Part shown: positions 5,850-14,355 of the stretch, in pieces
How positions within the stretch are numbered: position 1 is the first letter of the stretch
Layout: each line of letters starts with the position of its first letter
IMG/VR virus record: IMGVR_UViG_3300025016_000004
Reading direction: 5' to 3' (one strand)
Length of the DNA: 64,000 nucleotides
From: a virus
Lineage: Duplodnaviria; Caudoviricetes
Program-made: the position numbers and the translations under genes
The notes under the pieces: generated by a model
What the model saw: only the letters and a program-made list of their open reading frames with translations
Database searches by the model: none
Told to the model about the DNA's origin: nothing

Positions 5850-7619
5850 ATGGTAAAAGAATTTGTTGGCCCAGTTTATTTGGAGCCAATTGAACATGTT
5901 TATATTCATAGACAAACAGGTAAACGTTATGGTTCAGTAACCCAAATGTTAGGCTCAATTGAGCATGAATTTGAAACTGAATTGGTTGCAGAAAGAATAT
6001 CAATGCAGCGAGATGACGACCCTAAGAAGAATCCTGATTACCATGGTATGACCATGGAACAAATTTTAGATTATTGGCAATACTTGAATGATAGTGCCAA
6101 CGAATACGGAACATATGTTCATGAAACAGTTGAAACGTATCTTTTAAAACAAAAATGGTGGTATCCAACAGATGAGTTGCAGAAAGCTGTTATAAAGGCG
6201 TATAATGAATTAGAAGTTGATGAAGGTAAGTGTGTATACCCAGAGCGAATTATGTTTTCGGAAAAATATAGTCTAGCGGGGACTGCCGATTTAAAAATTG
6301 ATATTGATGATGAATGGTTTGATATTGGAGATTGGAAAGGGTTACCAATTGATACCCCAATATTCACTAATAATGGATGGAAAACTATGGGTAGTGTATC
6401 ATATGGTGATAAAGTTTATGACATGGATGGTAATCTATGTGATATATTACATTTTTCTGGGGTAAAAAATAAAGATTGTTTTGAAATTGAATTTGATAAT
6501 GGTGAAATAATTATCGCAGATTACGAACATAGATGGTTAATATCTTTTATGCGTGATGGTAATTTTACTGATAAAGTTATGACTACTGATGAACTATTCG
6601 ACTATACCACTGAATTAAATAAAAGTAATAAAAGATGGTCGCATAAAATACCTAAAATTAAGATAACCAAACCGTTAAATAATCCGAATATCACATTACC
6701 CTTAGACCCTTATTTGTTAGGTGTATGGTTAGGTGATGGGCATAAAACTGACACCAAGATAACTAATATGAATAAAAAAATGTGGTTAGAATTGGAAAGA
6801 CGTGGTTATGAATTAGGTGGTGATGTAAGCCAAGGTGGTTCTGGTAAAGCTCAAACTAGAACAGTTTTAAATGTGAGTAATATATTTAATGAATTAAATT
6901 TAATTCAAAATAAGCATATACCAGATATATTTTTAATGGCATCACATGAACAACGGCTTGATTTATTGCGTGGGTTTATGGATACCGATGGTCATTATAA
7001 TTCATCACGTAAAAGATTTGTTATGTCAACAACTAGAGAGTGGCAAGCAAATGAATTTAATAAATTAGTATCATCATTAGGTATTAAAACAACAGTAATT
7101 AGGTATAAGAAAAAAGCTATGGGTAAAATTATTAATGTAATTGATATTTGTTTTAGTACTAACAATTTAAACCCATTTTTAACTAGAGATGATTTAAAAA
7201 TTGAATATACTAAGATAAATAATAAAACGTTTAAAAATATTGTTTCAGTTAAAAAAGTGAAATCAGTACCAACTAGATGTATTGAAGTTGATAGCCCAAG
7301 TAGTACTTTTTTATATGGCTATAATTTTGGTGTAACACATAACACTAATAAAAGGTTTGAGTTTTATAGCCCATTTGGTCAAACACTTAAAAAACCTTTC
7401 AACCATTTACAACAATGTCATCATTCAACATATAGTTTACAGTTAAGTGTGTACGCTAAAATGTGTGAGGAAGAAACTGGAATGAAATGTAGACAAATAT
7501 GGATAGGATATTGGAGTAGGGAAACTGAAAAGTTTACTAGAATCCCAATTACATATCTTAAACACGAAGCAACACAACTATTGGAGCTTCACAAATATAA
7601 TAAAGAAATAGCTACTTAA
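5850..7619 (+). CDS. PD-(D/E)xK exonuclease containing an intein
   Basis: YGSVTQML, GTYVHE, AGTADL, DWK|TN, YSLQLSVYA; intein inserted between K and T. Confidence 0.85.
   Translation: MVKEFVGPVYLEPIEHVYIHRQTGKRYGSVTQMLGSIEHEFETELVAERISMQRDDDPKKNPDYHGMTMEQILDYWQYLNDSANEYGTYVHETVETYLLKQKWWYPTDELQKAVIKAYNELEVDEGKCVYPERIMFSEKYSLAGTADLKIDIDDEWFDIGDWKGLPIDTPIFTNNGWKTMGSVSYGDKVYDMDGNLCDILHFSGVKNKDCFEIEFDNGEIIIADYEHRWLISFMRDGNFTDKVMTTDELFDYTTELNKSNKRWSHKIPKIKITKPLNNPNITLPLDPYLLGVWLGDGHKTDTKITNMNKKMWLELERRGYELGGDVSQGGSGKAQTRTVLNVSNIFNELNLIQNKHIPDIFLMASHEQRLDLLRGFMDTDGHYNSSRKRFVMSTTREWQANEFNKLVSSLGIKTTVIRYKKKAMGKIINVIDICFSTNNLNPFLTRDDLKIEYTKINNKTFKNIVSVKKVKSVPTRCIEVDSPSSTFLYGYNFGVTHNTNKRFEFYSPFGQTLKKPFNHLQQCHHSTYSLQLSVYAKMCEEETGMKCRQIWIGYWSRETEKFTRIPITYLKHEATQLLELHKYNKEIAT
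6339..7343 (+). mobile_element. Contiguous 335-aa intein with LAGLIDADG endonuclease, class-3 signature
   Basis: Starts GLPIDTPI; block B EHRW, block F TRCIEVD, ends VTHN|T; motifs LGVWLGDG and RGFMDTDG. Confidence 0.9.
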
Positions 7620-8072: not shown

Positions 8073-8894
8073 ATGGCAGTACTTAAGGTAATTCATTGCG
8101 CAGACATACATATCAGAACATTTAGAATGCATGAAGAGTATAAAGAAGCTTTTCAAAAGTTTATCGATGAAGTAAAAGATTACTGCAAAGACTTTGATTA
8201 TGAAGAAATTAGAATTGCGGTAGTTGGTGATTTGGTTCACCAGAAAATTACAATATCCAATGAACAATTAATACTTAGTTGTTGGTTTCTTAATGAGTTA
8301 TCAAAAATAGGTAAAGTTGTTATCGTTGCTGGTAACCATGACTTATTAGAAAACAACCGAGATAGGGTTGATAGTATTTCCCCAATGATTCAATTATTGG
8401 ATAATGAAAATATAGCTTATTATAAAGAAAGTAAATGTTATACCGATGAAAACATTGTTTGGTGCAATTATTCGATTTTTGAAGAGAACTCTAGACCTGA
8501 CATTGAGAGGTACGTAGTTGATAATCAACCAGATGAAGAAGTTACTTTTGTTGGGTTATATCATGCACCACTTGTTGGCGCATCTACCGATATTGGGTAT
8601 GAGTTTAGTGAAGGTACAACGTTAGAGCATTTCGAAGGGTGTGATATGGTATTGTTAGGCGACATTCATAAAAGACAAGCGTTTGATTATAAAGGAACCC
8701 CAATAGCTTACCCATCATCACTTATTCAACAGAATTTTGGTGAAACGGTAAGTAAACATGGTTATTTAATTTGGGATGTTGAATCTAGAACGTATATTGA
8801 AAGGGATATAACAACAAGATACGGTTTTTATCAATTTAAAATAAAATCATTGGATGATATTGAAAACGAAAATGAAATTTTAACAAATGAATAA
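8073..8894 (+). CDS. sbcD: SbcD/Mre11/gp47-like nuclease
   Basis: ADIH, GDLVH, GNHD, LYH, GDIH metallophosphoesterase motifs; lies upstream of the sbcC-like gene. Confidence 0.85.
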   Translation: MAVLKVIHCADIHIRTFRMHEEYKEAFQKFIDEVKDYCKDFDYEEIRIAVVGDLVHQKITISNEQLILSCWFLNELSKIGKVVIVAGNHDLLENNRDRVDSISPMIQLLDNENIAYYKESKCYTDENIVWCNYSIFEENSRPDIERYVVDNQPDEEVTFVGLYHAPLVGASTDIGYEFSEGTTLEHFEGCDMVLLGDIHKRQAFDYKGTPIAYPSSLIQQNFGETVSKHGYLIWDVESRTYIERDITTRYGFYQFKIKSLDDIENENEILTNE

Positions 8895-9310: not shown

Positions 9311-9887
9311 ATGCGCACAAAAAAAAGATTATGATGATTATATCTTTATCATAAATCAACGAGTTGATAAAATTAGAGGTTCAATAGCTACTTTACATGA
9401 ATATGAATGGATTGCTAGATTAACTTACGAACAGTGGTTAAAATACTTAAAAGGTGATTTAAAAATTAATGACCCATTAGATGTTACTGATGTTATTCGT
9501 TCTAGAGAATTTAGATATTATTTTAATGTTGGTGAAATAGTGAAATTGGATTTTACGGTTATGACTAAAGAACAAAAAGAGTTTTATAAAGATTTAGAAG
9601 GTATGCATGCTGTTGTAACTAAATGTTGGTCTGATTTACATGCTTTTTCTTGTGGTTCTAGTTATGACCATGAATTAAGGTTTGAAAACGGTGTTGAATC
9701 ACCTATAAAACCACTAAAATATTGCCCACATACATTTGAACCTCCTTTATGGCGTGTCCGAACTTATATGATAATAGGTGTAAGTGAAGATGAGAAGAAA
9801 TACTATAAAAAAGAATTTGAAAATAGAACCCCAAATCAAAAACTTTGGTGGTACGTTACACCTAATAGTTGGTTAAATGATAAATAA
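9311..9887 (+). pseudogene. Hypothetical gene with a one-base frameshift in an A8 run
   Basis: ATG 9311 is out of frame by one A with a long open frame running from 9327 into the 9540..9887 ORF. Confidence 0.5.
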
Positions 9888-10458
9888 AGAACTTTTAAAG
9901 GAAATAGAAGCGTATTGTGAACTTAACGAATTGGAAGTCCCTAAAACGCTAAATGAGGCACTTAGAAGCGGTTTTACGATACTTAAGTATGGAATGGGTC
10001 CGAATACAGCTAAACCTAAAGAAAGGGTCATAGAGGTCATTAAAGAGGTTATTAAAGAAGTGCCTGTCGAAGTAATAAAAGAGGTTGAAGTCATAAAGGA
10101 GGTTCCAGTTGATAGAATTGTGGAGATTATAAAAGAAATTGAAGTAATAAAGGAAGTGCCAGTTGATAGGGAAGTGATAAAAGAGGTCGCTGTTGATAGA
10201 GAAGTCATAAAAGAAGTCCCAGTAGAAAAAAGTATTAACATTAATGTTGATGGCCATAAAATAAGTTATATGGAATACATTGACCAATTGAATGTTACTA
10301 TAAGTGAATTAGAAGTTAATAAAAAGAAAACATCCAAAGAATTATTGGATATTAATAATAAAGCTGATAACCTTCAAAAAGAATTATCAGACTATAAATC
10401 CAGATTAGATAAATGCCTTAAAGAGAAGGCATCTGGGTTAGATTTATACGGAGAATAA
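9877..10458 (+). CDS. EVIKEVPV-repeat coiled-coil protein
   Basis: About 8 imperfect EVIKEV(P/A)V repeats followed by a heptad-rich tail. Confidence 0.6.
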   Translation: MINKELLKEIEAYCELNELEVPKTLNEALRSGFTILKYGMGPNTAKPKERVIEVIKEVIKEVPVEVIKEVEVIKEVPVDRIVEIIKEIEVIKEVPVDREVIKEVAVDREVIKEVPVEKSININVDGHKISYMEYIDQLNVTISELEVNKKKTSKELLDINNKADNLQKELSDYKSRLDKCLKEKASGLDLYGE

Positions 10459-11033
10459 TGAATAAAAAAATAGTAGTACCAGAGAATGCTAGAGTAAAAG
10501 TTTATTGGGATGATAGGCCTGAGAACTATTCTAGACAAGCTAAATTAAATGTAGGAAATTACTTTAGTAAAAAATATGGGATAAGTAAAAATAACATAAA
10601 TGTAGTTTACAGACCTGTTAAAATTGGTAAAAATGGTGAAGTGATAGAAATTAGCGGTGCTGGAATTGAAAATATTCTAGATAGAAACTATCAACTTGAA
10701 TTAATGAAAGAATGGTTTAAGCGTGAAAAGAAAACCATAGATTTTAACCGTATTATTGATTTAGATAAAAAAGTTAATGACGCACTAGATAATCAAAGTG
10801 AGATTATTAACAATAGGTCTTGGGAATTAAAATGGTTATTCATTGATAATTTCCTATGTTTCGGTGAAAAAAACTTCGTATCATTTGGCAGATTAAAAGG
10901 GCTTAATATTGTAACTTCAGAACCAGCAAATCAAGGTGGTAAATGCTTACGTGGTGATTCTAAAATTAAAATTAATTTTAGTGTTGATAAAATAATAGAA
11001 AAGTTAGGGTTTTTACCAGAAGAATTAAAGTAA
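10458..11033 (+). CDS. sbcC: SbcC/Rad50/gp46 N-terminal fragment + 29-aa N-intein
   Basis: DNFLCFG; partial Walker A ANQGGK followed by CLRGDSKI (10944) and a stop. Confidence 0.85.
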   Translation: MNKKIVVPENARVKVYWDDRPENYSRQAKLNVGNYFSKKYGISKNNINVVYRPVKIGKNGEVIEISGAGIENILDRNYQLELMKEWFKREKKTIDFNRIIDLDKKVNDALDNQSEIINNRSWELKWLFIDNFLCFGEKNFVSFGRLKGLNIVTSEPANQGGKCLRGDSKIKINFSVDKIIEKLGFLPEELK

Positions 11034-11092
11034 TTTAAGCAGCTCTTTACCTTTTTGATTAAATGGTTATATTTATTTATAAATATTTAATC

Positions 11093-12112
11093 ATGGGTAA
11101 AGTTTATAGATTTAATGAAAATGAAATAAAAGATATTATTAAAATGTATGTGGAAGATTTTGAATCAACAAATAATGTCGCTAAAAAATATAAAGTTGAT
11201 AGTAGTGTCATATCTAAAAGATTAATAGATAATAACATTATTTTAGCTAAAGGTTCTGCGTATTCTGAACAATATTGGTTAGATAGGGGTATGGATAAAA
11301 CTGATATTAAAAATCATATTAAAACATTAAGACCAGTAAATAAAGAATATTGGTTAAAGTTAGGTTATACCGAAGAAGAAAGTATATTACAAATAGAAGG
11401 TCAAAAATTGGTTTCAGAAAGAGGTTGTGTTGCTAGGTATGGCAAAATTGAGGGTAAACGTATTTGGAAAGAAAGGGAAGATAAAAGAAGTAAAAATGGT
11501 AAAAAAGGCTCTACAAGTTTAGAATATTGGATTAATAAAGGGTATTCAGAAAAAGAGGCTAAAATTAAGCGAAGTGAAAGGCAAAAAACGTTTTCAAAAA
11601 AAAAATGTATCGAAAAATATGGTAAAAAAGAAGGTTTAATTATTTTTACTGAAAGACAATGTAAATGGCAAAAAACGTTATATAAAAATGGGAAATTAAA
11701 ATCTGGGTATTCGGGTATTTCACAAGAATTATTTTTTGAAATAATTAAATATGTTGATGATACTAAATTATTAAATCAAATATTTTTTGCTGAAAAAGGT
11801 GGTGAGTATGTAATGGATAGTGAATATGGATTTTATAGGTTTGATTATGTAGACACCAAAAATAAAAAAATTGTTGAATATAATGGTGACCAATATCATG
11901 GGAACCCAAATAAATACATTGCTGAAGACACACCGCATCCATTTAGAAAAGATATAACAGCACAAGAAATGTGGGATAATGATAAACGAAAAATAGATTT
12001 GGCTAAAGAAAATGGGTTTGATGTATTAATAATTTGGGACTCGGAATATAGGTTAGGTAATAAACAAGATATAATAAATAAATGTATAAAATTTTTAAAT
12101 TACAATAAATGA
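11093..12112 (+). CDS. Vsr-like (PD-(D/E)xK) homing endonuclease between split-intein halves
   Basis: RFDYVD, VEYNGDQYHGNP, GFDVLIIWDSE; N-terminal HTH and KEYW repeats. Confidence 0.8.
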   Translation: MGKVYRFNENEIKDIIKMYVEDFESTNNVAKKYKVDSSVISKRLIDNNIILAKGSAYSEQYWLDRGMDKTDIKNHIKTLRPVNKEYWLKLGYTEEESILQIEGQKLVSERGCVARYGKIEGKRIWKEREDKRSKNGKKGSTSLEYWINKGYSEKEAKIKRSERQKTFSKKKCIEKYGKKEGLIIFTERQCKWQKTLYKNGKLKSGYSGISQELFFEIIKYVDDTKLLNQIFFAEKGGEYVMDSEYGFYRFDYVDTKNKKIVEYNGDQYHGNPNKYIAEDTPHPFRKDITAQEMWDNDKRKIDLAKENGFDVLIIWDSEYRLGNKQDIINKCIKFLNYNK

Positions 12113-14355
12113 TTAAAGAAATAGAGATAGGTAAATTAAACGATTTATTGAAAAAATACCCACAATTATTACCCAATGATTTCCAAGTTGATACACCATA
12201 TGGTTTTCATGATATTGAATGGTGTGGTATAACTGAGGAAAATGCTGAAGTTTATCGATGTGAATTAGAGGATGGTAAATATGTTGAAGGGGCTGATTAT
12301 CATAGATTAAAAAAAGAAGATGGTAAATTTACAACATTAAAGGGTATTGAAGTTGGAACTCCAATACAAATAATTGGGGGTAAAACATCTAATGTTAAAT
12401 CCATTGAATTATTAGAAAAACGTGATACCTTATATGATATTCAAGTAGCAAAAGTTCAACAATATTATTCAAATGATATGGTATCACATAACACAACTTT
12501 CAGTGTTGACGCCATTAAATTTTTATTATTTGGTAGAACTACAAAGACTGATAAAAATGAGCAAATATTTAACACTTACACTGATAAAAATACGTTGGTA
12601 GTAAGAGGTATGTTTGAAATTGAAGGTCAAGAAACTATTATTGAACGTAAATTAAGTCGTAGTGCTAAAAAATCTGGTGGTTGGACTGTAGTTAATAAAG
12701 TTAATTATTATAAACTACTCCCTGATGGTGAAGAGGTTTTATTAAATGATGAAGATTCCAAAAAAACAAGTGAAGTAATAAAAGATAATATTGGTGATGA
12801 AACTGATTTTGATATCACTATATTAGCTACCGCTAGAAACTTAGAAGATTTAGTTGATGCCAAACCAACTGAAAGTGGTAGGTTGTTAACTAAATTTATT
12901 GGGTTAGAAGTTATTGAAAATAAAGAAATCATTGCCAAACAAATGAATTCAGATTTTAATAAGACTAAAAAGGGTAATCACTATAACGTAGTTTCCCTAT
13001 TAACGGATAACACAACCAATGAAGAAAATATTAAATTATATTCTGACCATTTAAAAACCCATAAAGAAAATCTATCAGTTGTTGAAAGTACGATAGGTAA
13101 ATTAGATAATGAGAAAGACCGTTTATTAAATAGTAAATTAAAAGTTGATGTTGAAATTTCTCAGTTAAATCCAGAAACGATTCAAACAGAAATTGACCGT
13201 ATAACAGATAGGGGTTTAGAGTTTAAAGAAAGAATCAAAGAATATGAAGCTAAAATCAAAGAAATTGCAAATATTTCATATGATGAATATTTATACGATG
13301 AATTAGAGAAGAAAAGTAGAGATTTAACAATTAAGATTGGTGGGTTAGAAAATGATGTAGTACAATTTGGTAAGGTTATTGCTGATTTAGAGAATAGCGA
13401 AATTTGTCAAGCCTGTAAACGGCCATTAGATGATGTAGATAATTCACAATCAATAGCTGATTATAAAGCAAAGATTGGTAGTACTAGAGTCTCAATTGAA
13501 GCGTTAAAAATAGATTTGGCTGAAATCGATGGTTCTATATCTAAAATGAAGGAAAATAGAGAAATCGTAGATAGAAGAAATAGATTAGAACTGGAGAAAG
13601 ATAAGGCTGAAGTTGAGATTGGTTCTTTAAGAAATAAAATGATGGATAAGAAAGCCGATTTGAAAAAATACAAGGCTAATGAAGAAGCTATCAAAACCAA
13701 TATTAATATTGAGGCTGACATATCGGCAGTAAAAACCAACTTAATTGTTGAGAATAGACAAAAAGATGATGTAAATCAAAAAATTTATTCTACACAAACA
13801 GCAATTACAGCGGCTGAACAACAAATCATCATGAATGATAAGATGATTAAAACACTTAAGAAAGAAGAAGAAATTGAAAAGGTGTTTAAAGTTTATCTAG
13901 AGATGGTTGGTAAAAAAGGTATTAGTAAATTAGTCTTAAGGTCAGTTTTACCAATTATCAATTCGGAATTACATAGATTATTAGATGAAGTTTGTGATTT
14001 TGAAATTGAATTAGTTATAAATAGTAGAAATGAGGTTGAATATAATCTAATAAAAAGTGATGTGATTAAATCACTTAAATCTGGTAGTGGTTTAGAAAGA
14101 ACTATAGCTAGTTTAGCATTAAGATGTGTATTAGGTAAGATATCACATTTACCAACACCAAATTTTATTACGTTTGATGAAGTGTTGGGTAAAGTTGCCG
14201 CAGTTAATATAGAAGCGTTAAAACCTATGTTTGAGAAAATTACGGACATGTTTGATATAGTATTTTTCATATCACACAATGATTTAGTTAGAGATTGGGG
14301 TGATAATGTGATAACAATTAAGAAAGTTAACGACATTTCATCGATTAAAGTATAA
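12109..14355 (+). CDS. sbcC: 128-aa C-intein + SbcC/Rad50 C-terminal part
   Basis: LYDIQV...VSHN|TTFS at 12492/12493; coiled coil, CQAC hook, SGSGLE signature, ITFDEV Walker B, FFISH. Confidence 0.9.
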   Translation: MIKEIEIGKLNDLLKKYPQLLPNDFQVDTPYGFHDIEWCGITEENAEVYRCELEDGKYVEGADYHRLKKEDGKFTTLKGIEVGTPIQIIGGKTSNVKSIELLEKRDTLYDIQVAKVQQYYSNDMVSHNTTFSVDAIKFLLFGRTTKTDKNEQIFNTYTDKNTLVVRGMFEIEGQETIIERKLSRSAKKSGGWTVVNKVNYYKLLPDGEEVLLNDEDSKKTSEVIKDNIGDETDFDITILATARNLEDLVDAKPTESGRLLTKFIGLEVIENKEIIAKQMNSDFNKTKKGNHYNVVSLLTDNTTNEENIKLYSDHLKTHKENLSVVESTIGKLDNEKDRLLNSKLKVDVEISQLNPETIQTEIDRITDRGLEFKERIKEYEAKIKEIANISYDEYLYDELEKKSRDLTIKIGGLENDVVQFGKVIADLENSEICQACKRPLDDVDNSQSIADYKAKIGSTRVSIEALKIDLAEIDGSISKMKENREIVDRRNRLELEKDKAEVEIGSLRNKMMDKKADLKKYKANEEAIKTNINIEADISAVKTNLIVENRQKDDVNQKIYSTQTAITAAEQQIIMNDKMIKTLKKEEEIEKVFKVYLEMVGKKGISKLVLRSVLPIINSELHRLLDEVCDFEIELVINSRNEVEYNLIKSDVIKSLKSGSGLERTIASLALRCVLGKISHLPTPNFITFDEVLGKVAAVNIEALKPMFEKITDMFDIVFFISHNDLVRDWGDNVITIKKVNDISSIKV

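Follow-up and report, generated by a model that had tools for sequence, protein, structure and literature searches.

A candidate naturally split intein at the Walker A motif of an SbcC-like ATPase gene in a giant phage

Introduction

Natural atypical split inteins with short N-terminal fragments are scarce reagents for protein semisynthesis and live-cell labelling, and those in the literature searched are AceL-TerL, GOS-TerL, VidaL and PolB16, plus engineered derivatives. Their split sites lie either after the second β-strand (S1: VidaL, PolB16) or after the first α-helix (S2: AceL-TerL, GOS-TerL), and the published natural N-terminal fragments (IntN) are 15–37 amino acids (aa) long (PMC13014065). 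Fractured genes in which intein halves accompany an endonuclease gene have been described in gp41, IMPDH, DnaE, NrdA, NrdJ, DNA ligase, terminase and one unknown host, with no SbcC, Rad50 or gp46 among them (Dassa 2009; PMC2677866). In that study the terminase locus is split so that the C-terminal fragment (IntC) has every motif except N1, an SbcD-like gene is broken by a Vsr-like open reading frame (ORF) without an intein, and control elements come in with the endonuclease gene (PMC2677866). Here we analyze a 64,000-nucleotide (nt) stretch of DNA (the window) from an uncultured virus of the Caudoviricetes (IMG/VR record IMGVR_UViG_3300025016_000004), in which an SbcC-like ATPase gene is interrupted within its Walker A loop by two candidate intein fragments and an endonuclease gene.

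We consider it very likely that this element is a naturally split class 1 intein in a fractured gene, with a homing-endonuclease cassette set within a mini-intein at the Walker A motif of a giant-phage ATPase. The element type and its mechanism are already known, and it is the SbcC host gene that is new relative to the literature searched, where, with incomplete coverage, no intein in SbcC, gp46 or Rad50 was found described. A preliminary description of this DNA, made from the sequence alone, had called an SbcC host unusual; this holds insofar as such a host is unreported in the searched literature, but the arrangement is not rare in nature, the family being common in metagenomes.

A clean insertion in the Walker A loop

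Positions 10458–14355 of the window comprise three ORFs on one strand (+), laid out as the preliminary description had recognized from the fractured genes of Dassa: an N-terminal part with IntN, a spacer, an endonuclease gene, and IntC with the C-terminal part. The first ORF (N-ORF; 10458–11033, 191 aa) joins an N-extein of 162 codons (10458–10943) to IntN (10944–11033, that is, 29 aa at 10944–11030 and a stop codon); it reads ...EPANQGGK just before IntN and ends ...IVTSEPANQGGK/CLRGDSKIKINFSVDKIIEKLGFLPEELK and stop, where the slash, here and below, marks the point of insertion. A 59-nt spacer (11034–11092) leads to the endonuclease gene (11093–12112). The last ORF (C-ORF; 12109–14355, 748 aa) starts with IntC (12109–12492, 128 aa; MIKEIEIGKLNDLLKKY..., MIKEIEIGKL...) and passes between residues 128 and 129 (...YYSNDMVSHN/TTFSVDAIKFLLFGRTTKTDKNEQ; MVSHN/TTFSVDAIK) into a C-extein of 620 aa (12493–14355) that begins at Thr+1, the Walker A Thr. 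IntN and IntC are separate polypeptides, with a stop codon after residue 29 and the IntC ATG 1075 nt downstream of the IntN stop, and the endonuclease stop overlaps the IntC start codon (ATGA, 12109–12112). The insert as a whole (10944–12492, 1549 nt, Cys1 through Asn128) is a clean insertion between the AAA (Lys162) and ACA (Thr) codons of the Walker A loop of the SbcC-like gene.

Intein-free alleles place the junction exactly. A search with the N-ORF found 617 longer homologous proteins, and among the best 120 of these, 118 are uninterrupted, about 782 aa long and read GGK/T, while the remaining two carry a contiguous intein at the same site. The closest is P0367 (locus L008, 782 aa, intein-free), whose residues 1–162 are colinear with the N-extein and whose residues 163–782 share 96% aa identity with the C-extein with no gap; the joined extein coding sequence and the P0367 gene are both 2349 nt long and 92.9% identical. 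Removal of the insert thus leaves an uninterrupted, conserved host protein, and since 162 and 620 residues sum to the 782 of the intein-free alleles, ANQGGK/TT is the true junction. The ORF boundaries and the intein-free allele together bear out the position of the insert and the fragment sizes of 29 and 128 aa given in the preliminary description, as well as its claim that splicing restores ANQGGK/TT, which is the sequence found in the intein-free alleles.

The C-extein matches phrog_77, "SbcC-like subunit of palindrome specific endonuclease" (E = 2.1e-39), several intein-free homologues are named "DNA repair exonuclease SbcCD ATPase subunit" by JGI, and precomputed PF13476 AAA_23 hits are present in intein-free relatives. 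By-eye reading of the alignment finds in the C-ORF a coiled coil with a zinc-hook-like CQAC (residues 433–436), a signature-like SGSGLE (658–663), a Walker B-like FDE (689–691) and an H-loop-like His723. Our own Pfam searches gave nothing meaningful with the N-ORF and no match at E ≤ 0.01 with the full-length homologue P0367. An SbcD/Mre11-like nuclease gene lies at 8073–8894 (+; Pfam Metallophos E = 3.9e-10; phrog_100, SbcD-like, E = 1.1e-22), and from these matches the host is best read as an SbcC/Rad50/gp46-type ABC (ATP-binding cassette) ATPase with an adjoining SbcD/Mre11-type nuclease gene. SbcC has been described as nearly universal in jumbo phages (PMC7824862). The N-extein consists of an N-terminal extension of about 120 aa followed by the start of the ABC ATPase head, with the Walker A stretch PANQGGK at its end. 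Because the intein sits between Lys and Thr of a divergent Walker A motif (P-A-N-Q-G-G-K-T), Thr+1 is both the splice nucleophile and a P-loop residue; the colinear intein-free allele, the phrog_77 match and the GGK/T site agree with the SbcC Walker A placement proposed at the outset.

Other features of the host gene and its surroundings were noted alongside. The N-terminal extension (10458–10820, N-extein residues 1 to about 120) is without family match and is conserved in hundreds of homologues, and in P0011 and P0048 an SbcD-like phosphoesterase is fused upstream in its place. The ORF directly upstream of the N-ORF (9877–10458, +, 193 aa) carries VIKEVPV/EVIKEV-type repeats and has no family match. 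Positions 12493–12520 differ from L008 by five synonymous changes in the first 25 nt of the C-extein (about 20%, vs a gene average of about 7%), which could reflect a co-conversion tract or target-site divergence, the numbers being too small to judge. In some intein-free relatives the SbcC-like gene is broken or divergent elsewhere: L007:5001–7371 encodes it as 204 + 432 + 149 aa, and in P0226, P0234, P0241 and P0243 it is likewise broken or divergent at other points, so that it may be a target of other insertions or frameshifts.

Intein identity and conserved catalytic residues

IntN residues 1–12 form block A (CLRGDSKIKINF, β1 and β2), and residues 13–29 form a helical tail (SVDKIIEKLGFLPEELK). 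IntC contributes a β-strand and α1 (IEIGKLNDLLKKY), block B (GADYH, with His65), block F (LYDIQV) and block G (MVSHN). Its match to Pfam Intein_splicing lies in the C-terminal end of that family and, at E = 6.9e-4, scores under the gathering threshold; the gp41-1 intein 6qaz is matched at E = 2.9e-5. A profile of the IntC family matches VidaL 6vgv (E = 1.9e-15), NrdJ-1 and the terminase (TerL) consensus CatC (E = 3.1e-10). Together these matches uphold the earlier identification of the element as a split intein. A search of the PDB by sequence with IntN alone gave no match.

The residues expected of a class 1 intein are present. The nucleophile Cys1 directly follows GGK, and the C-terminus is SHN/T, with Ser or Thr at position +1 in all SbcC-type relatives. 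An alignment of 53 IntC sequences shows G32, I36, His65 (block B), L108 and D110 (block F), H127 and N128 to be invariant, and an alignment of 45 IntN ends shows no change at Cys1 or at the tail positions G22, F23, P25 and K29. More than 50 diverged homologues retain Cys1, the block B His, Asp110, His127, Asn128 and Ser/Thr+1. An AF2 model of a contiguous homologue (P0011:408–577, a relative and not this copy) has a predicted local distance difference test score (pLDDT) of 93.4 and a predicted template-modelling score (pTM) of 0.87; its top 50 Foldseek matches are inteins or other HINT-fold domains (BIL2, Hedgehog), and its best match in the PDB is VidaL (E = 2.8e-11; template-modelling (TM) score 0.88 by target; root-mean-square deviation (rmsd) 2.4). 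The intein is very probably functional, with its splicing chemistry inferred.

Distribution of the family

The same elements recur far beyond chance. The 29-aa IntN is carried by 69 of 96 near-length N-ORF homologues, and an exhaustive HMMER search with IntC returned 187 cluster representatives at E ≤ 1e-3. Most of these matches begin at residues 1–5 of proteins of 650–770 aa, that is, in the same split architecture, and about twenty are internal, directly after ...GK/C at Walker A, and represent contiguous inteins. Hosts of the sampled representatives carry SMC_N or AAA_23 domains, and others are terminase or DnaB. The order N-ORF, endonuclease gene, C-ORF is repeated in four other loci (L002, L004, L005 and L006), and the same layout, sometimes with one or two extra small ORFs, is found in marine and other metagenomes, on contigs as long as 355 kb. 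The stretch itself occurs in 24 DNA sequencing runs from aquifer and hot-spring metagenomes. The 96%-identical intein-free allele and the contiguous alleles show that the element has been gained or lost repeatedly, in line with its being mobile.

No SbcC-hosted relative turned up when IntC was compared by tblastn with the GenBank cultured-phage collection; its nearest relatives in that collection lie within fractured terminase genes of T4-like coliphages or in unannotated regions of the genomes of Campylobacter phages and an uncultured huge phage. Annotations of Escherichia phage HY03 (L009, NC_031047.1 26087–28939) and other T4-like coliphages divide the terminase large subunit into two coding sequences, separated by one labelled "endonuclease". 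The second terminase coding sequence opens with a segment related to this IntC (33% identity, E = 1e-5); this layout indicates that a fractured TerL gene with a split intein exists in cultured Tequatrovirus phages.

Two further intein-bearing sequences were observed. The Logan contig L001:172–1260 (allele P0037) holds a one-piece intein without an endonuclease gene, whose IntC part is 67% identical to that described here; on this one contig it has a single in-frame TAA just before block B (..LELENGL, stop, IEGADYH..), which could represent decay, sequencing error or recoding. The reading of P0037 as a contiguous allele truncated at the contig end was rejected in favor of a contiguous intein with an in-frame TAA. 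Within the window, an ORF at 5850–7619 (+, 589 aa) contains a LAGLIDADG_3 domain (residues 368–429, E = 3e-6), which suggests that a different gene of this phage also holds an intein, one carrying its own endonuclease.

The endonuclease gene and the spacer

The middle ORF, free-standing between the two intein fragments, can be read from 11063 or 11093 to 12112, giving a protein of 349 or 339 aa. Its more than 500 homologues have the consensus start MGKxYxF, which favors the ATG at 11093, and the start is most likely there. The 339-aa protein matches phrog_22677 (E = 1.7e-26). It gave nothing meaningful in Pfam and no sequence match in the PDB, alone or as a 37-sequence profile. The AF2 model (pLDDT 87.5) has three parts: an N-terminal helix-turn-helix (HTH, residues 4–50) with Z scores of about 5 to HTH domains of transposases and resolvases, a middle part in which a helical unit with a YW..G(Y/M) motif occurs three times, and, at the C-terminus, a Vsr-like nuclease domain (residues ~196–339, nt 11678–12109). 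With Foldseek the whole model had no match at E ≤ 0.001, and the relationship is clear only with VIA-align, in which the C-terminal domain superposes on Vsr (1cw0; Z 11.2, rmsd 4.3, 120 aligned residues), I-Bth0305I (3r3p; Z 10.0, rmsd 2.9, 95/97 aligned) and a Neisseria endonuclease-like protein (3hrl; Z 9.8). E238, D251, D254, E262 and H269 are invariant, and D266 and D297 nearly so. The preliminary description of a Vsr-like endonuclease between the halves is thus right at the level of the fold.

The spacer contains a promoter-like motif, CTTTACC-N13-GGTTATATT, at 11045–11073, with a sigma-70-like arrangement of TTTACC and TATATT separated by 16 nt. The motif occurs once in the window, and it is shared by four related loci that have no more than 55–80% identity in their N-ORFs. 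A scan with the consensus, of which 9 of 12 positions match, found 42 sites where 27.7 were expected, which is not above chance alone, so that it is conservation across loci that points to a promoter. A promoter here would fit the remark of Dassa, cited above, on control elements brought by the endonuclease gene.

Position of the split and the helical tail of IntN

The break appears to fall after β2 and before α1, leaving α1 on IntC. Positions 2–125 of the IntC family profile align with VidaL chain residues 23–143, the IntC head aligns with NrdJ-1 from chain residue 18 (TTIKEVVEIF; residues 18–28), which is the canonical segment right after β2, and CatC aligns only from profile position 18. 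In the P0011:408–577 model, in intein numbering, a strand at 7–12 is followed by the tail helices at 14–21 and 26–29, a short strand at 38–40 and α1 at 41–51. A complex was predicted for this window's own fragments, IntN carrying 22 extein residues and IntC carrying 16, and obtained a score of 0.70, the highest among the controls being 0.01; a score of 0.70 is reached by 58 of 80 solved complexes and by 2 of 110 mismatched pairs, counts that calibrate the result only roughly because custom alignments were used. The prediction runs had at least 78% of contacts in common with a partner pLDDT of at least 62, and the contacts of lowest error place IntN residues 6–12 between IntC residues 2–7 and 24–28. 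Models and alignments together support an S1-type split, and with the published distinction between S1 and S2 they agree with the earlier observation that IntC keeps a segment that AceL-TerL has on its IntN.

IntN residues 13–29 are predicted to form a conserved 17-residue amphipathic helix after β2. In local alignments IntN and IntC together are colinear with contiguous relatives, and the break falls in a loop of about 4 to more than 70 residues. The tail is absent from the short contiguous P0033, P0118 and P0104 and from the same-clade P0417; it is present in contiguous P0011, P0017, P0048, P0412 and L001; and almost no split allele is without it (of 69 IntN-bearing clusters, only two or three are incomplete). 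More distant contiguous members have a similar D-x-E-[IV]-x-K-x-F helix in the tail position. Codons of the tail (LGFLP.ELK) differ synonymously while the amino acids are unchanged (e.g., TTA/TTG, GGG/GGA/GGT, CCA/CCT), which indicates that selection acts on the protein. A duplication of α1, with the IntN tail set against the IntC head, was considered and rejected, since contiguous relatives have both segments in series.

The tail probably aids the short IntN in associating with IntC, and in the predicted complex residues V14, K16, I17, K20, L21, P25, E27 and L28 touch IntC. A stronger version of this idea, which we offer tentatively and regard as possible rather than probable, is that the tail (IIEKLGFLPEELK) is a split-specific "clasp" that, by docking on the leading strand and helix of IntC, provides the 12-residue catalytic IntN core with sufficient affinity for trans-splicing. 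The tail may date from the ancestor of the family, or it may come from the endonuclease cassette; by analogy with the mobile-element-derived interaction domains that reassemble Aeh1 NrdA it may have arrived with that cassette. If the clasp were real, the family would offer an affinity module, natural and transferable, for ultra-short split inteins of the S1 type, and the β2/α1 loop would be a second natural endonuclease entry site in HINT domains. No conserved helical tail on a short half was found described in the literature searched.

Proposed mechanism and alternative explanations

We propose that three proteins would be made from the locus: N-extein–IntN (191 aa), the endonuclease (339 aa) and IntC–C-extein (748 aa). 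IntN would supply only β1 and β2, with the Cys1 nucleophile, and the 17-residue amphipathic helix, and IntC the remainder of the HINT fold. In the predicted assembly a pair of IntC strands flanks the IntN strand, and the tail helix packs on the IntC head. Cys1, the block B His, the terminal His-Asn and Thr+1 would then carry out standard trans-splicing, releasing the intein and yielding a 782-aa ATPase with an intact P-loop, able to work with the neighboring SbcD-like nuclease. The Vsr-like endonuclease would cut cassette-free alleles in co-infection, and so spread and maintain the element. On this mechanism, a near-universal DNA-end-processing ATPase of a giant phage would have been made dependent on protein trans-splicing at its P-loop.

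Several observations weigh against this proposal. Of the block B pattern TxxH the invariant His65 is kept; in place of Thr this copy has Ala (GADYH), and Ser or Ala stands there in relatives, most of which also lack Thr (S/A-P-D-H). Block B variants are known to splice. No RNA run is among the sequencing runs listed for this stretch. The complex score is the model's own confidence and may lean on solved split-intein structures; as split-intein complexes are already in the PDB, a pass indicates likeness and is no proof that this copy binds. The cassette also looks fixed in its clade (69 IntN-bearing clusters, with an endonuclease at all sampled loci), so that it may now be maintained vertically and not by active homing. 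The first of these points would also fit halves that are non-splicing relics, leaving the ATPase non-functional or a non-covalent two-piece enzyme held together by the intein halves. Phage Aeh1, whose fragmented NrdA is assembled by mobile-element-derived interaction domains (PMC3045599), is a precedent, splicing here is so far only inferred, and the in-frame TAA inside the contiguous intein of L001 indicates that decay occurs in the family. We nevertheless judge such relics very unlikely: more than 50 diverged split alleles show no variation at Cys1, His65, Asp110, His127, Asn128 and Thr/Ser+1, synonymous codon changes that leave the residues intact point to protein-level selection, an unspliced assembly would leave 157 residues between the P-loop Lys and Thr and should abolish ATP binding, and the near-universality of SbcC in jumbo phages argues against loss of its function.

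Two other alternatives concern how the insert is removed and where the intein is cut. Removal at the RNA level, through a group I intron carrying an endonuclease gene or through translational bypass, draws on the occurrence of Vsr-like endonucleases in group I introns as well (Dassa 2009, PMC2677866; I-Bth0305I, PMC3239194). It is, however, extremely improbable here: an Rfam search across 10300–12700 found no intron family at E ≤ 1 and no ribozyme, its sole match being tsr31 at a chance-level E of 0.28; the DNA on either side of the endonuclease gene codes for intein blocks A, B, F and G in the reading frame of the exteins, and these blocks are conserved as protein; and the insert starts exactly at Cys1 and ends exactly at Asn128. 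A functional split intein whose break is homologous to the S2 site of AceL-TerL and GOS-TerL is the other alternative. Under this reading SVDKIIEKL of the IntN tail would be the canonical α1 and the IntC head would be a family-specific insertion, and an I-x-x-L helix-like pattern is indeed present in both segments; alignments of TerL-type atypical IntC sequences to this one begin at about residue 13–25; and the contiguous TerL protein P0061 has a canonical KITMKDLFDD and then a second helix before a TP.GF strand. We hold an S2 split to be unlikely, because the predicted complex pairs IntN 6–12 with IntC 2–7 and 24–28, because NrdJ-1 residues 18–28 and VidaL from residue 23 align to the IntC head, and because the contiguous P0033, P0118, P0104 and P0417 are without the tail yet retain the IntC-head segment. 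The preferred reading remains a trans-splicing intein with a probable S1-type split.

The locus belongs to a large and diverse family that was not found in the literature searched. Dozens of its natural variants are split, others are contiguous and either have or lack the IntN tail, and intein-free alleles occur as well. Such variety is material for orthogonal pairs and for finding what makes an S1 split associate well. One clade also captures several stages of the "gene-breaking" model of Dassa: the empty site, the contiguous intein and the intein invaded by an endonuclease gene.

Comparison with known systems

The endonuclease resembles I-Bth0305I and Vsr (EDxHD) in its superposing C-terminal domain, its invariant acidic and His residues and its separate N-terminal DNA-binding region, but it has no sequence match to either structure, and its N-terminal part consists of an HTH and three helical repeats. 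The locus as a whole resembles the fractured genes of Dassa 2009 (PMC2677866) in its layout on one strand, its Vsr-like endonuclease family and its phage setting; its spacer is 59 nt, whereas theirs are 27–51 nt.

AceL-TerL, GOS-TerL and the consensus Cat share with this intein a short IntN (25, 37 and 30 aa) and a long IntC (104–115 aa), as well as phage P-loop ATPase hosts, and they are homologous to this IntC (CatC E = 3.1e-10); the HMMER search with IntC likewise matched many TerL-type IntC sequences. They are split after α1 (S2), whereas the break here is placed after β2 (S1). In the one TerL relative inspected, P0061, the intein lies before GKS rather than between K and T, and the host differs. 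The preliminary description had stressed a very short N-fragment, which is apt against canonical split inteins; among natural atypical fragments of 15–37 aa, however, 29 aa is mid-range (PMC13014065).

VidaL (PDB 6vgv/6vgw; IntN 16 aa) is the closest solved relative, both by profile (E = 1.9e-15) and by fold (TM 0.88). Both inteins are Cys-dependent, VidaL is split directly after β2 (S1; PMC13014065) as is predicted here, and both IntCs start with a strand and α1. Identity between them is only 22–33%, the +1 residue at this locus is Thr, and IntN here reaches 29 aa since a conserved 17-residue helix comes after β2.

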